Positions 11,056-48,809 of a DNA stretch of 64,000 nt are shown here, piece after piece; the first letter of the stretch is position 1; each line of letters starts with the position of its first letter. The DNA comes from Candidatus Latescibacterota bacterium (GTDB lineage Bacteria > Latescibacterota > UBA2968 > UBA8231): positions 6,336,001 to 6,400,000 of the forward strand of contig OZ241867.1 of NCBI GenBank assembly GCA_965203175.1, written 5' to 3'. The notes beneath the pieces are model-generated. The model was given only the letters and a program-made list of their open reading frames with translations. It ran no database searches and was not told where the DNA came from. The translations under genes were made by a program, and so were the position numbers.

Positions 11056-11988
11056 ATGAATCCCATGACTCAACGTGCCCGCAGCGAGAAACGAGACGAG
11101 GATCTCGTCCGCGCCGTCTTGAACGGAGATGTGGAACAGTATGCCCTGCTTATCCAGCGCTACCAACAGGTCTTATGGGCAATGGCCCTTTCCCGGCTGC
11201 GGGATCATCGTCAGGCCCGAGAAAGCGTCCACGACGCCTTTGTCAATGCGTATCTGTCCCTCCACACTCTCAACCGCAAGGAGCGATTCGGTGCCTGGCT
11301 CAGGACCATCCTCTACAACTGCTGTTTAAAGACGTTAAAAAAGAGAAGCCGCGAAACGGCCCTCCCTGAACAGGCTCTAGACGCCAGCCTCAATCCCCAA
11401 GATCGTCTCGAAAGCCAAGAGGCCGGTGAAAATCTGTGGCAGGCCCTAGCCAGCCTTTCACCGCTCTTCCGCGAACCTGTACTGCTCCACTACTTCTTTG
11501 CGTTTTCCGTAGAAGACACTGCGGCGTGGCTGGATATTCCCACGGGCACAGTAAAACGACGATTACACGACGCCCGCAAACAACTAAAGCAACACCTACT
11601 TCCCCTTTCCTCCAACTTTGACATCCACTTAGAAAAGGAGATTGTCATGGAAATCAAAGATAAGAAAATCCCAGGGGCGGTCCTCGAATACGTGGACATG
11701 AGCGAAGCCGTATTCCGCAACATCGATCTATCGGGTGCTGATTTCGAATATGTCAACATCGACCGCACCCGCTTCCGGAATACCGGTGGAGGGGATCACA
11801 CCCCGGCTAAAAACATCACCTTCGAACACTGCACCATGCAGGAAAGCCATTTTGCCCATGTCGATCTATCGGGTTCCCACTTTCAGCACGTCAATCTGAA
11901 CAATGTTACGTTGGAGAACTGTTCTATCGAGGGTCTAACCATCGACGGCTTCGACATCAAAGCGCTCATAGAAAAAGAGAAGGGGTGA
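11056..11988 (+). CDS. ECF sigma-70 factor with C-terminal pentapeptide-repeat domain
   Basis: sigma2 (FGAWLRTILYN), sigma4 (IPTGTVKRRLHDARKQLK), then MSEAVFRNIDLSGADFEYVNI...LSGSHFQHVNLNNVTLENC...IDGFDI. Confidence 0.88.
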   Translation: MNPMTQRARSEKRDEDLVRAVLNGDVEQYALLIQRYQQVLWAMALSRLRDHRQARESVHDAFVNAYLSLHTLNRKERFGAWLRTILYNCCLKTLKKRSRETALPEQALDASLNPQDRLESQEAGENLWQALASLSPLFREPVLLHYFFAFSVEDTAAWLDIPTGTVKRRLHDARKQLKQHLLPLSSNFDIHLEKEIVMEIKDKKIPGAVLEYVDMSEAVFRNIDLSGADFEYVNIDRTRFRNTGGGDHTPAKNITFEHCTMQESHFAHVDLSGSHFQHVNLNNVTLENCSIEGLTIDGFDIKALIEKEKG

Positions 11989-14139: not shown

Positions 14140-14377
14140 GTATCTCCTTTCAATTGGGCCAAGGTTGCCGAGGGGCTGTCTGTTCCTAGCAGGCAAATTG
14201 CAGAATCCATCTGCCGCCAGACCATGCGATAGGGATTTGTGCCTTCCCAGACTTACAACGGAAGAAATGGTGGTTAACAATGGCAAGCATCTCCCTTTTG
14301 GATCAGCCTGAACACAGTTTTCTCCATTCCGTTCCAAGATCACCCCTATAGTTGCTTCTAGGCGATGAAGGTATCCG
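14140..14377 (-). pseudogene. Decayed ECF sigma remnant with its promoter
   Basis: 14308-14377 matches 48369-48438 (promoter and first codons of the sigma-clamp gene; LERNGENCVQ vs MERNGESCVQ) with ATG changed to TTG. Confidence 0.65.
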
Positions 14378-14452
14378 AATGGGATAAAATAAGGAGACTT
14401 GATGAATTATCAATAAGTATTTATTTATAAACAACTTACATACATACATCCC

Positions 14453-45011: not shown

Positions 45012-45815
45012 TTACGCCGAATTCGCAGAAGATTCGCCCGGCGGCAAGAGGGAAAACTCCACCTCGAGATGCGTCTCAGGCACGTGCAGATTGCTTTCGA
45101 TCAGAGACTGCCAAGCCCACAAAACCTGCCACCGACTGGCGCGCTGGTCGATAATCTGACGCCGCACCAGCCCAACCCGCCATACATCGCCAGCGGCCGG
45201 AGGCAGGCTCTGCGCGTCCGCCAACCTTTTCAACCCCTCCCAAGGGAAGGCCAGTTCCACGCTCCAGCCTTGGTCGATATCATCCCGTTTATTCAGGGTA
45301 CCCGCAACCTGCACTCCGACCTGTAATCCGGGAAAGCGCCAGTGCGAAAAAGCCCAGCGCATGGCGCGATAGTCGGAATTCGACCCTCCGCCCAAGACTT
45401 CGGGCCGATGCACCGCCAGATCAAACTCCGGCACGTCGTAGCGGCCACCGCGCTGATAGGCCTCCTTCCAGATGTGGAACATCTCTGAAGTCGCGCCCAG
45501 CGGATTGACGGCCAGTTCGTAATACGCTCCCCGACCGACGAGGAGCACCCCGACGTTGTTGTCCTGCCGGACTACCAGCGGATCCTCTTCCTCCGCACCG
45601 CACACATCGCGATCTTCCATCCAAAAGCCCACGTAAAAATTCTGGTCGTCCCACAGCATGGCCGCTCGGGTATCGAAAAGCGATCGCCGTCCGCTGTGAT
45701 CCCCAAAGCGCGGAGAGCGCGGTGCCCGAACCCAAGCTTCTTCCTGCAGGTGGCCGTCCACATCAATGGCGTCTTCGGTCCTATGACAAACGTAGCGCAC
45801 GGTCTTGTCACTCAT
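45012..45815 (-). CDS. CBM9-like protein (paralogue of 45812-46636)
   Basis: IDVDGHLQEEAW, TRAAMLWDD, YYELAVNPLG, GWSVELAFPW. Confidence 0.8.
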   Translation of the reverse strand: MSDKTVRYVCHRTEDAIDVDGHLQEEAWVRAPRSPRFGDHSGRRSLFDTRAAMLWDDQNFYVGFWMEDRDVCGAEEEDPLVVRQDNNVGVLLVGRGAYYELAVNPLGATSEMFHIWKEAYQRGGRYDVPEFDLAVHRPEVLGGGSNSDYRAMRWAFSHWRFPGLQVGVQVAGTLNKRDDIDQGWSVELAFPWEGLKRLADAQSLPPAAGDVWRVGLVRRQIIDQRASRWQVLWAWQSLIESNLHVPETHLEVEFSLLPPGESSANSA

Positions 45816-46636
45816 TCCGCACCCACCACCTTTTCGGAAAAATGTATCACACTGAAGCGATCCGGGATGTGCGAATCATAAGTCCCGTGGCTGGTCCAAG
45901 CCCACCCAGGACACACCCGCGTGCCGCCCTCCTCAATCCACTGGAAGCGCGAAAAATCCATCCGCCATATATCCCCTTCCCGAGCCGGCAGCGAGCGCCC
46001 GTCCGCCAAGTGCTTCAACCCCTGCCACGGAAAGGCGATTTCAGCGGTCCAACCCCGGTCGGTGTCGCTGGAATCATTGATGGTGCCGTCCACCTGTACC
46101 GCCCATTGCAACCCCGGCATGTCCCATTCGCGAAAGGCCCAGCGCCGCCCGCGCGGATGCCGATGTCCCGACGGCGGCCCTCCGAGGGTATCCACCAGCC
46201 GGGTACCCAGCAGATCGAATTCGGGCAGCTTGGCGTACCCAGCCTCGATGTAGGCGTCCTGCCACACGTAAAACCGCTCCATGATGGTGCCCAAGGCATT
46301 CAGCTCGAATTCGTAATAGCTATCCTCACCGGCTATGAAGACCTCCACGTCGTTTTCCTCGCAGATCATGGAATCGCGCGTGGTATAGGTCGCCCGCACA
46401 TCCGGGTCTTCCACCCAAAAGCCCACGTAGAGGTACTCGTCATCCCACATCACCGCGGCCCGAGTGTCGAAAAGGGCCGGTCGGCCCGGTTCCTCCAGAT
46501 CCTCGAAACGCGGCGATTTGGGCACCAATTGCCACGATTCCTCGTCGAGGTGCCCGTCCACCACAATCGGACTCTTCGCCCGATAGCTGGTATAGTGCTT
46601 CAAACCCTCTTCCGAATAGCCGTATTTACTCGTCAT
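45812..46636 (-). CDS. CBM9-like protein
   Basis: IVVDGHLDEESW, WDDEYLYVGF, ENDVEVF, YYEFELNALG, GWTAEIAFPW. Confidence 0.82.
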   Translation of the reverse strand: MTSKYGYSEEGLKHYTSYRAKSPIVVDGHLDEESWQLVPKSPRFEDLEEPGRPALFDTRAAVMWDDEYLYVGFWVEDPDVRATYTTRDSMICEENDVEVFIAGEDSYYEFELNALGTIMERFYVWQDAYIEAGYAKLPEFDLLGTRLVDTLGGPPSGHRHPRGRRWAFREWDMPGLQWAVQVDGTINDSSDTDRGWTAEIAFPWQGLKHLADGRSLPAREGDIWRMDFSRFQWIEEGGTRVCPGWAWTSHGTYDSHIPDRFSVIHFSEKVVGAE

Positions 46637-46833
46637 GTACTGGGTCTCTCCGAATGGCCCAACTTGGGTGTCGAAATTGACCAAGAAAAACTATTCAGGT
46701 ATGCTTAGTACGCGATTTCGCTGTTGGAAGATACCCTACTAGTAGTCATGCGTCGGTATTATAACACACCTCTCGAAAAGGGCAACCCATTTGAAATCAC
46801 TGGTTTACAGAATGATTCTTAACGAGGACTGAT

Positions 46834-47054
46834 ATGACCAACAAACTCAAAAATGCTTTCGACAAAATCTCAACTCTGAGCGAAAAAGAGCAGGACGCTA
46901 TCGCGGAAGCTCTCCTAGCGGTAGTAGATGATACTTGGGGGCCAGAGGACGATAAGGACGAAGCCGAATGGGACGCCCTAGTGGGATCAAAAAGATCTCA
47001 TGCTTGGTTGGACAAAATGGTAAAGCAAGTTCGGCAAGATATTCAAGAAGGAAG
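46834..47054 (+). pseudogene. Orphan antitoxin-like gene, 3' end lost (reads into the convergent sigma gene up to 47205)
   Basis: MTNKLKNAF...LSEKEQDAIA...EWD...VRQDIQEG resembles small TA antitoxins; GAGGA SD; no toxin downstream. Confidence 0.5.
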
Positions 47055-48398
47055 TCAGGAAGCCATCCGCAGCGGCATGAGCACGGCAGCGTGGTGTTCC
47101 TCCCCCACCTCAAAGTGCAGGGGTGCCTCACTGTGGTCAAGATATATCCGTATCTCCTCTGCCGAGTCTTTCAGAGCCTCCACAATCGTCTTGAGGAAGT
47201 CGTGATTCAGGTCGACGCGGAATGACCCTCCATCCTCGATATTCGTCACATCAGCAGGGCAACTCACGGAATGTTCCCAGTCTGGGAAGTCGTCACCGTA
47301 CAGGTCGTCCGCATTTTCCTCGGTCCGACTGAACCCCTGATCCCGCGTCGTTCGCAGCGCTAGTCTCCCCTCTGTACTCGACACCCGCATCTGTACGCGG
47401 GACATGTACTCCCAGCCACTCTTCACCAGTTCGTGGCGCTCTCTGAGAAACGGCTCAATCTCCTCCACGCAGGCCATCAGACTCTCGCTGTGCACGACCG
47501 CCAAGATCGGACCGGGGATGCCGACGGCCTCTTGGTACTTGAGGTACGGTCCAGGAGTTGCCGGGAATGTCACCCTACGGCCGTCCGCAGTCTGCAACGT
47601 GGCCGATTCCTCTTCGAGAATCAGCGTCGCCGCGTCGGTATCCGGGATCATTTCAGGGTGCAATGAATCGAGAATCATCGGAGCCGGCAGCGACGCGAGC
47701 CCCTTACTCGACCAGTTGAGTAGCCGCGAGCCGTCTGTTGCGACGACTCTGCCACCAGCGTCGAGACAGACGCAGTGCATAATGGGCCGCTTGGGATCGT
47801 CGCTTGTGAAGCGAGCTACGTGCCGCAGTCCGGCTAGATCGTCCGCGCCGAGTTCAAATGTCTGTGCAGTGCTGGATTCCGCCATCGCCATGATCTCCTT
47901 TTGCAGGCGTTTCCGGGCCTTTTGCAGACGGCTTTTTACCACTCCGGTTTGGAGGTGCAGCAAGGTTGCTGTCTGCTGATATGAATAGCCCTTGAGGTAG
48001 TGGTGGACAATCACGTCTCGGTGGGAGTCACTCAATCGTCCGATCGCCTTCCGCACCAGCGCCCTGATCTCCTGCTTCTCCTGCTCGGGCGGTGCCGCCA
48101 AGTCGAGCTGATCCAGCAGATTGAGTTGCGTGATACGACGCCGCTGCCACATGCGCGCTTTGTTGTCCGCGATCGAGCACAGCCAGGCACCGAACCGCTC
48201 GGGAGCGCGCAACTTCGCTAAATGCTGGTACGCGGCAATGAACGCCTCCTGCAGCACATCCTCTGCCGCCTCTTGCGCACCCAGCCTGCGAGTGAGCCGC
48301 ACCAGCAGCCACGGCGTGTGTTCCTCAACGAGCAAACCAAACGCCGCAGAGTCGCCAGCAGCAGCCTTCTGCACGCAGCTTTCTCCATTCCGTTCCAT
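47055..48398 (-). CDS. ECF sigma-70 factor fused to a DnaN (beta sliding clamp) domain II-III homologue
   Basis: sigma2/4 (AEDVLQEAF, FGAWLCSIA, VKSRLQKARKRL), then clamp motifs KRPIMHCV, VATDGSRL, GPYLKY, DLNHDFL..IVEAL, AVLMPLR. Confidence 0.85.
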   Translation of the reverse strand: MERNGESCVQKAAAGDSAAFGLLVEEHTPWLLVRLTRRLGAQEAAEDVLQEAFIAAYQHLAKLRAPERFGAWLCSIADNKARMWQRRRITQLNLLDQLDLAAPPEQEKQEIRALVRKAIGRLSDSHRDVIVHHYLKGYSYQQTATLLHLQTGVVKSRLQKARKRLQKEIMAMAESSTAQTFELGADDLAGLRHVARFTSDDPKRPIMHCVCLDAGGRVVATDGSRLLNWSSKGLASLPAPMILDSLHPEMIPDTDAATLILEEESATLQTADGRRVTFPATPGPYLKYQEAVGIPGPILAVVHSESLMACVEEIEPFLRERHELVKSGWEYMSRVQMRVSSTEGRLALRTTRDQGFSRTEENADDLYGDDFPDWEHSVSCPADVTNIEDGGSFRVDLNHDFLKTIVEALKDSAEEIRIYLDHSEAPLHFEVGEEHHAAVLMPLRMAS

Positions 48399-48406
48399 GA
48401 TTACCT

Positions 48407-48437
48407 TATAGTTGCTTCCTAGGCGACAAAGGTATCC
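48407..48437 (-). promoter_or_regulatory. Putative ECF promoter GGATACC-N16-CAACTATA
   Basis: Directly upstream of the sigma ATG; conserved copy at 14347-14376. Confidence 0.55.
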
Positions 48438-48462
48438 GCAAAAAGGAACCGTCGGGACAAAC

Positions 48463-48503
48463 TTGACAGGATTTTCACAACATGTACAGTAAATAGGTAC
48501 ATA
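48463..48503 (+). promoter_or_regulatory. yefM-yoeB promoter/operator
   Basis: TTGACA-N16-TACAGT overlapped by TGTACA and GGTACA boxes, like the known YefM operator core. Confidence 0.65.
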
Positions 48504-48518
48504 TCACAGGAGAATCAA

Positions 48519-48809
48519 ATGACCACCATTACGACCTATACCCAAGCCAGAGCCGCACTCGCATCGCTCTGCGACGAAGTCGCCTCCACCCGCGAGCCCG
48601 TGATCATACGGCGGCGCAATGCCGAAGACGTTGCGCTGGTTTCAGCCGACGAATTAGCCAGCCTCCTCGAGACCGCTCATCTCCTCAGATCGCCCCAAAA
48701 CGCCCAACGCCTTCTCACAGCGATCAACCGCGCACAGAGCCGGGAGTTGTCTCCTTCTTCCGTAGAAGAGTTGCGCCGGGAACTCGGTCTTGTCGAAGAA
48801 GAAAAGTAA
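48519..48809 (+). CDS. yefM: Phd/YefM antitoxin
   Basis: TYTQARAALASLCDEV, PVIIRRR, ETAHLLRSPQNAQRL. Confidence 0.93.
   Translation: MTTITTYTQARAALASLCDEVASTREPVIIRRRNAEDVALVSADELASLLETAHLLRSPQNAQRLLTAINRAQSRELSPSSVEELRRELGLVEEEK

Follow-up and report, generated by a model that had tools for sequence, protein, structure and literature searches.

A gene in the 64,000-nucleotide stretch of Candidatus Latescibacterota contig OZ241867.1 analysed here (hereafter, the window) encodes an intact, complete extracytoplasmic function (ECF) sigma2/sigma4 module covalently joined to a two-domain homolog of the beta sliding clamp, DnaN. Its open reading frame (ORF) is exactly the one proposed in an initial annotation made from the letters alone, and the fusion described there is borne out by Pfam for the sigma part and by family-profile and structural comparisons for the clamp part (Table 1). 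The C-terminal extension derives from domains II and III of the replicative clamp, and it has kept the cleft between them and lost domain I. No simpler devices for converting a signal into transcription are known than ECF sigma factors with fused sensor domains, which are sought as orthogonal switches, and the clamp cleft is among the best understood peptide-docking sites of bacteria and also a drug target. We give an even chance to the explanation that the protein is an autoregulated one-component ECF sigma factor, controlled through the cleft by its clamp-derived extension, with no separate anti-sigma factor.

The sigma module comprises residues 1-171. Pfam detects regions 2 and 4 only (Sigma70_r2 and Sigma70_r4/r4_2, with the Sigma70_r4_2 match at 114-165), and regions 1.1 and 3 are absent, which places the protein in the ECF group (group IV) of sigma factors. 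The NCBIfam model TIGR02937 (sigma70-ECF) scored 86.5 bits against a cut-off of 42.9, and no NCBIfam equivalog or subfamily model exceeded its cut-off for the fusion protein. The sigma2.4 and sigma4 motifs are present in all 31 aligned full-length sequences of the family, and region 4 is the most conserved module of the fusion protein.

Beyond this point, the protein escapes Pfam. Residues 172-447 matched no Pfam family even at E ≤ 10 and did not reach the gathering score of DNA_pol3_beta_2/_3; a single-sequence search of the PDB with the same residues returned no match, and none of 59 relatives carries DNA_pol3_beta_2/_3 among its precomputed Pfam domains. Because the module has no Pfam match, Pfam-based architecture searches never flag the fusion protein and miss it entirely, and similar clamp-derived modules may therefore hide elsewhere. 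Profile comparisons revealed the homology. PHROGs phrog_947, "DNA polymerase processivity factor", matched the module (E 6.9e-11, profile positions 131-274 of 368), and a profile built from 31 family members retrieved 55 distinct PDB sequences at E ≤ 1e-3, all of them beta clamps (best E 3.7e-17). With a second profile, built from 35 members, the genome's own DnaN scored 80 bits and Escherichia coli DnaN 62 bits (reference sequence from NC_000913.3); on the latter, the profile aligns at residues 125-266 and 313-366. The five motif pairs that the initial annotation had matched by eye between the two proteins were all reproduced in the profile alignment to E. coli DnaN.

Structure prediction likewise yielded a clamp fold for the C-terminus, as had been anticipated. 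The first AlphaFold2 model had a mean predicted local distance difference test score (pLDDT) of 76.1, and the second, generated from a deeper 55-sequence alignment, reached a pLDDT of 87.8 and a predicted template modelling score (pTM) of 0.71, with values below 50 only at linker residues 98-103 and at residues 1-3, and a value of 78 for the block at the sigma4-clamp junction. The top matches listed by Foldseek against the PDB were all bacterial beta clamps, starting from E 7e-14 with a probability of 1.00. VIA-align superposed residues 175-445 of the model on residues 121-366 of E. coli beta (Z 22.1, root-mean-square deviation 2.6 Å, 233 aligned residues), a range that we take to be domains II and III; across clamps, Z ranged from 19 to 23.5 over ~230 residues (root-mean-square deviation 2.4-3.0 Å), the best chain being 7evp_A (Z 23.5). 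Both the superposition and the profile cover only domains II and III of the E. coli protein, so that domain I, already reported missing in the initial annotation, has no counterpart here and the three-domain I-II-III architecture of DnaN is not present. Structure and family profile together identify residues ~178-445 as a genuine homolog of DnaN domains II and III. The module shares with DnaN the fold and sequence homology of these domains and the residues of the protein-binding cleft, including the C-terminal M-P-x-R. It differs from DnaN in lacking domain I, in its fusion to a sigma factor, in falling below the Pfam DnaN thresholds, in its position away from the dnaN-recF locus, in a shortened second helix of domain II and in conserved residues of domain III that are specific to the family.

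The fusion is real and old, and no artefact. A contig piece from an independent run (X7) covers positions 46900-48600 of the window with 25 substitutions and no gaps, and a fused ORF of 417-486 aa was found in all 41 orthologous loci read (two of them being the same place); the junction between sigma factor and clamp, taken as continuous in the initial annotation, holds no stop or frameshift in either data set. A word-indexed search recovered 59 relatives, 55 with sigma Pfam domains and the other four on contigs of 1.1-3.4 kb. An exhaustive search of 50%-identity representatives gave 74 relatives at E ≤ 1e-3, 28 of which are 403-494 aa long and match in their C-terminal part; stand-alone forms of 260-290 aa also occur among these representatives and are either real genes or contig-edge fragments. 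Within the phylum Candidatus Latescibacterota, 67 of 168 genomes contain exactly one match each, located in open frames of 422-510 aa in 64 of the 67. The matches fall in four of 14 families, referred to as f1 (31/75 genomes), f2 (2/3), f3 (18/22) and f4 (15/31), against 0/36 in the others; these counts exclude the window's own genome, which is the 67th and belongs to f1. At E ≤ 1e-22, a level above the DnaN background, no match was found (0/151, 0/151 and 0/101) in genomes sampled from the phyla of the genomes that hold loci L018 (Planctomycetales), L031 (Acidobacteriota) and L044 (Cloacimonadales), a negative that is limited to the genomes searched, many of them large and with only 16 candidates scored. 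A protein atlas search provided leads only, its best scores (0.83) being below the meaningful level; atlas clusters of ~245 aa annotated as "putative DNA polymerase III subunit beta" with these scores may be similar.

Across the four families of the phylum the module has been kept down to ~30% identity. Pairwise comparison of the window gene with nine orthologs gave dN/dS values of 0.05-0.24 in the sigma half and 0.10-0.27 in the clamp half, and both are therefore under purifying selection. The residues of the E. coli clamp cleft, as given in the clamp literature, were mapped onto 35 diverse family members. E. coli R152 corresponds to R in 28 of the 35 rows, L155 to a hydrophobic residue in all 35, T172 to T in 28, G174 to G in 32, R176 to R in 24, L177 to L in 26 and V247 to V in 26; N320 corresponds to N in 31 rows, Y323 to Y or F in 28, M362 to M in 32, P363 to P in 33 and R365 to R in 22. 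By these counts, no other surface of the module is as well kept as the groove that separates domains II and III, and the ATDGxRL and C-terminal MPxR motifs, which the initial annotation had singled out as lining the cleft, are retained. The cleft residues are equally present in the genome's own DnaN.

A family-specific feature resides at the start of the sigma2-sigma4 linker. Q91 is found in 54 of 55 family sequences, versus three of 49 ordinary ECF sigma factors at the aligned column, and position 94 is L, F or W in 52 of the 55. The resulting motif, Q91-hydrophobic-x-L/F/W, loosely resembles what we take to be the clamp-binding motif of the QLxLF type. A built-in clamp-binding motif was first downgraded as a candidate, the hydrophobic pattern after region 2.4 being generic in the 49 ordinary ECF sigma factors; the family specificity of the Q and L/F/W positions partly reinstates the idea, at the level of sequence.

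Two features, a peptide-docking cleft as the best-kept surface of the extension and a family-specific motif in the linker, lead us to propose a peptide-gated sigma factor. The cleft would bind a short linear peptide, either a motif of a partner protein or, in cis, the protein's own linker motif; peptide binding would set the access of sigma2/sigma4 to RNA polymerase, in the manner of the SnoaL-like extension of ECF41 and the TPR extension of ECF42; and the active sigma factor would then transcribe from GGATAC-N16/17-C(A/G)(A/T)C promoters, namely its own, providing positive feedback, and, within the genus, that of a gene for a DUF5916/CBM9 protein. Here we infer autoregulation, the peptide ligand, the regulon, the binding step and the direction of regulation, and analogy together with conservation suggests the regulatory role of the extension. 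In PMC8999054, such extensions are described as acting in cis: those of ECF41 touch a motif of the linker between sigma2 and sigma4, and that of ECF42 is predicted to operate via a partner protein.

The protein has much in common with the ECF sigma factors that carry such C-terminal extensions. It shares with them a sigma2 and sigma4 core, a conserved extension of more than 50 aa (~276 aa in this case) and a conserved motif in the sigma2-sigma4 linker; as in those proteins, its gene is preceded by a conserved promoter and has no conserved anti-sigma gene in its vicinity. It differs from them in that the extension is a 270-aa homolog of DnaN domains II and III, and in that the presumed ligand site is a peptide-binding cleft and not a small-molecule pocket or metal site. 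No anti-sigma domain was detected among the annotated neighbours of the fusion gene and its orthologs.

The putative promoter of the fusion gene is preserved well beyond the genus. Within the genus, only the ~75 nt upstream of the ATG are conserved, as a near-invariant block, and the DNA beyond differs. A bipartite upstream element is present in nearly all families examined, with the form GGATAC(C/T)TT...CAACTA in f1, GATAC-N16-CATCTT in f3 and GACAC-N16-CGTCTT in f4; a putative ECF-type promoter, GGATAC-N16/17-C(A/G)(A/T)C, with the layout of an ECF -35/-10 pair, is thus both present and conserved upstream of the gene itself. Strict patterns specific to each family matched solely at the own-gene position, in three of five f3 genomes (the other two have variant sequences) and in five of five f4 genomes; no second target came to light in these distant genomes.

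In the window's genome, the strict pattern has three matches, located at the gene's own promoter, at window positions 14376-14350 and at genome position 1939015. The last of these falls within a 319-aa frame of the opposite strand and was discounted as a likely chance match. The match at 14376-14350 belongs to a ~75-nt duplicated block (14310-14385, minus strand) that contains the promoter of the sigma gene, its ribosome-binding site and its first ~10 codons, with the ATG changed to TTG, and it lies upstream of the gene for the DUF5916/CBM9-like protein, the candidate target. Of 31 genomes of the genus, 21 contain the promoter block, 13 of them in two or three copies. In six of nine regions fetched from relatives, the second copy is situated upstream of a DUF5916/CBM9 ortholog (92-95% identical); in the remaining three, the search pattern gave nothing or an unrelated site. 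The duplicated block upstream of the DUF5916/CBM9 gene looks like the growth of a regulon by promoter duplication. Adjoining this gene is a second ECF sigma factor gene (11056-11985, plus strand) whose product ends in C-terminal pentapeptide repeats (PF00805, E 1.6e-14).

Several observations weigh against a peptide-gated, autoregulated sigma factor. The cleft residues are also among the most conserved in real clamps, so that their conservation may be partly structural. The linker (residues 91-110) is of low model confidence (block pLDDT 56 and 55), is not confidently placed in either AlphaFold2 model and, in the second, prolongs the region 2.4 helix instead of appearing as a docked peptide; the contact between cleft and peptide is one that we infer. 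Regarding the promoter, the f3 locus L115 has no element at the expected position, and the reversed control pattern for f4 also matched once in each of five genomes (G072, G073, G080, G081 and G087). Furthermore, there was no genome-wide enrichment of the strict pattern, with three matches versus one to three in three block shuffles, or of a medium pattern, with 37 matches, most of them inside long ORFs, versus 30-40 in the shuffles. Given these unenriched counts and the f4 control matches, it is the position of the element and its phylogenetic conservation, and not the number of matches, that speak for the promoter. The reversed-pattern matches in the five related f4 genomes are probably a single inherited chance site, close relatives not being independent. 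Expression of the gene is hinted at by contigs X15 and X17, which cover parts of it and come from two RNA libraries that possibly contained DNA.

Natural truncations also argue in this direction. The variants G131, G108 and P0055-P0060 comprise the sigma module and the first ~65-83 residues of the clamp module, and the extension is therefore not indispensable for retention of the gene. These variants, which occupy frames of 248-278 aa, some of them in complete genomes, are possible natural deletion controls. The presence of the G131 and G108 truncations in complete genomes, and the fact that no partner or ligand was found, would suit an evolutionary relic, that is, an extension carried as a passenger by an ordinary ECF sigma factor controlled solely at its own transcription. 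A relic is difficult to reconcile with the dN/dS of the module, with its retention and cleft conservation across the four families and with the family-specific sigma linker motif, and we regard it as highly improbable.

Neighbouring genes provide no further clue to a partner common to the family. Among 22 loci from different genera, no neighbour gene family was common to all, the largest clusters covering eight loci, and context is conserved within each family only, with no theme shared across families. This bears on the possibility, akin to the replication-stress idea of the initial annotation, that the sigma factor is instead coupled to the replisome, with a cleft that binds the clamp-binding motifs of replication or repair proteins such as polymerases, the clamp-loader delta subunit or Hda-like proteins. 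Its activity would then signal how far these proteins are available, or it would be recruited to forks. The residues with which DnaN binds such motifs are conserved in the module, and the host DnaN has the same cleft residues, so host clamp-binding motifs plausibly fit. Nevertheless, the sole predicted targets are the gene itself and the DUF5916/CBM9 gene, no replication or repair gene appears among the predicted targets or the neighbours conserved at family level, and no partner was identified, which makes coupling to the replisome unlikely.

The same cleft could, in principle, accommodate a drug. The initial annotation had suggested the sensing of griselimycin-type ligands or of replication stress, a suggestion that found no support, the predicted targets being the gene itself and the DUF5916/CBM9 gene, with no extra dnaN. 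A clamp-drug sensor or resistance device, in which a drug of the griselimycin type lodged in the cleft would switch on a protective regulon, appears extremely unlikely. The model does align with the DnaN chains of the griselimycin/mycoplanecin structures 8cix, 8ciy and 8ciz (Z 19.4), which reflects the shared fold only. However, the predicted targets are unrelated to the clamp, and no biosynthetic or efflux gene is conserved as a neighbour across families, the MFS transporter gene adjacent in the window included. Moreover, a PF02768 search of the genome yielded a single match and no extra full-length dnaN. That match is the canonical dnaN, which encodes 387 aa, adjoins recF and lies ~5.1 Mb from the fusion gene, in line with the earlier remark that the fusion gene is not at a dnaN locus. 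An additional full-length DnaN of the GriR type, which usually adjoins a biosynthetic cluster, is thus not present, the fusion protein itself being devoid of domain I.

A different role for the module would be to travel on DNA. In T4 late transcription, the gp45 clamp activates the gp55 sigma factor, and the initial annotation had raised a clamp-tethered sigma factor of this kind, which is unsupported in that the predicted targets have no link to replication. The T4 system shares with the present protein a sigma-type protein functionally joined to a clamp with two domains per protomer. The T4 clamp differs in forming a trimer of its own, which a clamp loader places on DNA and which is bound via a short motif; in the present protein, sigma factor and clamp part are covalently linked, the latter belongs to the bacterial beta type and any ring is hypothetical. 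A DNA-tracking sigma factor, in which three two-domain modules would form a six-domain, PCNA-like ring on DNA that carries the sigma module, seems quite unlikely. Two clamp domains per protomer is the arrangement of PCNA and gp45, and the model is matched (TMt 0.62-0.72) by phage proteins of 211-246 aa that are two-domain "Pol III beta-like processivity factors". In addition, the family has conserved residues of its own, L318, H322, Y331, P333 and W374, in the first half of domain III, which is presumably the inter-protomer interface in real clamps. On the other side, where DnaN has the second channel helix of its domain II, the family has a segment that is shorter by 4-6 residues (mean 16.9 vs 21-23) and more acidic (mean charge -1.6 vs 0 and +1), and DSSP assigns just a 3-residue helix there, at 248-250. 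The first helix of domain III is acidic as well (mean -2.0), in a crude test in which real DnaN segments are also near neutral. Furthermore, no clamp-loader gene is a conserved neighbour in the 22 loci, and a trimeric sigma factor is without precedent. A complex prediction with three copies of the clamp-like module, run without controls, scored 0.02 against a mark of 0.42 and speaks neither for nor against a ring. Taken more broadly, the notion that the module closes into a PCNA-like ring of three protomers or otherwise loads on DNA, with the sigma factor scanning DNA from the loading site, is in our view very unlikely.

The phage two-domain factors resemble the module in having two beta-type clamp domains without the third, and differ from it in being stand-alone proteins, annotated as replication factors, with no sigma module. 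Examples from BFVD (A0A6G9L9F1, A0A0A0RQG5 and A0A0H3UZL6) may be relatives of the module or its source.

ECF sigma factors with fused regulatory domains are known; what appears to be new is the clamp-derived type of domain, which is unreported in the texts searched. No paper combining ECF or sigma terms with clamp terms was found in the literature search. The words clamp, DnaN and polymerase III have no occurrence in the searched main texts of PMC7826278, which reclassifies the ECF sigma factors, and of PMC8999054, a 2022 review of non-canonical ones, nor did a characterised ECF group with such an extension turn up in these main texts; to that extent, the absence of a described ECF-DnaN fusion, as stated in the initial annotation, stands. 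The family may have been described earlier under an ECF group number, since the extension types of groups such as ECF220, ECF237, ECF262 and ECF276 are covered in the supplements of PMC7826278.

If the cleft does gate the sigma factor, the clamp fold would prove recruitable for signalling, the protein would constitute a naturally occurring sigma switch under peptide control, whose promoter is defined (GGATAC-N16/17-CAAC/CATC/CGTC), and it would offer a testable case of a linker motif serving as a cis-ligand. If, instead, the module forms a ring on DNA, it would add a new mechanism by which a sigma factor is brought to promoters; with a ring or another form of DNA loading, the clamp-activated sigma factor of phage T4 would have its first covalent counterpart in a cell, and promoter choice would be coupled to DNA ends, nicks or replication.

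Table 1. Features of the fusion gene, its putative promoter and the candidate target gene (window positions).
Feature	Position	Strand	Evidence and remarks
Whole gene: ECF sigma factor and DnaN II-III-like module	47055..48398	-	ORF list and translation; 447 aa plus stop, ATG start
Sigma region 2, residues 23-88	48135..48332	-	Pfam PF04542 (Sigma70_r2), E 4.8e-13
Linker motif Q91-L92-N93-L94 (Q-hydrophobic-x-L/F/W), start of sigma2-sigma4 linker	48117..48128	-	Family-specific; putative function
Sigma region 4, residues 114-167	47898..48059	-	Pfam PF08281, E 3.5e-11; PF04545, E 9.1e-08
DnaN domain II-like, ~residues 178-295 (approximate boundary)	47514..47867	-	VIA-align ranges; profile alignment to E. 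coli 125-266; cleft conservation; cleft positions R204, T221, G223, R225, L226
DnaN domain III-like, ~residues 296-445	47064..47513	-	VIA-align ranges; profile alignment to E. coli 313-366; conservation; cleft positions N398, F401, V439, M441, P442, L443, R444; family-specific residues H322, Y331, P333, W374
ECF-type promoter-like element GGATAC-N17-CAACT (putative -35/-10), directly upstream of the fusion gene	48410..48437	-	Conserved block
Second promoter copy	14350..14376	-	Genome scan, pairwise alignment; conserved in relatives
Candidate target: 711-aa DUF5916 and CBM9-like protein with N-terminal signal-like segment	12004..14139	-	PF19313, E 2.2e-27; PF06452, E 3.7e-06

The genome consists of a single contig of 6.58 Mb, in which the fusion gene occurs in one copy, as a solitary gene. 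The initial annotation placed the gene between toxin-antitoxin modules, which is correct for one flank, where a PhdYefM/YoeB toxin-antitoxin pair is divergently transcribed upstream of it. The other flank carries a convergent 123-aa ORF (46834-47205, plus strand) that overlaps the last ~150 nt of the fusion gene and has no Pfam or PADLOC match, so that this half of the claim is unconfirmed; among the anti-phage defence models of PADLOC, the whole fusion protein, the clamp-like module and this small ORF each matched 0 families at E ≤ 0.01. Neither an intrinsic terminator nor a sigma70-type promoter was predicted on the strand of the fusion gene. A contig from run X2 has 439 other letters between positions 47051 and 47054, directly after the stop codon of the sigma gene, and the DNA downstream of the fusion gene therefore varies between strains.

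In the f4 loci (L116-L121), the sigma gene is found among paralogs of PhyH-type dioxygenases and sulfatases, and in the f3 loci (L108-L115), genes for a UMPH-1 nucleotidase, HU, an ankyrin-repeat protein and a DegT aminotransferase are nearby. Just downstream of the sigma gene region in the window, two tandem genes (45012-46684, minus strand) encode proteins of 290 and 267 aa with similar N-terminal segments and have no promoter motif in front. Of the two products, only the first has a Pfam CBM9 match, a domain type that also occurs in the DUF5916 candidate target.

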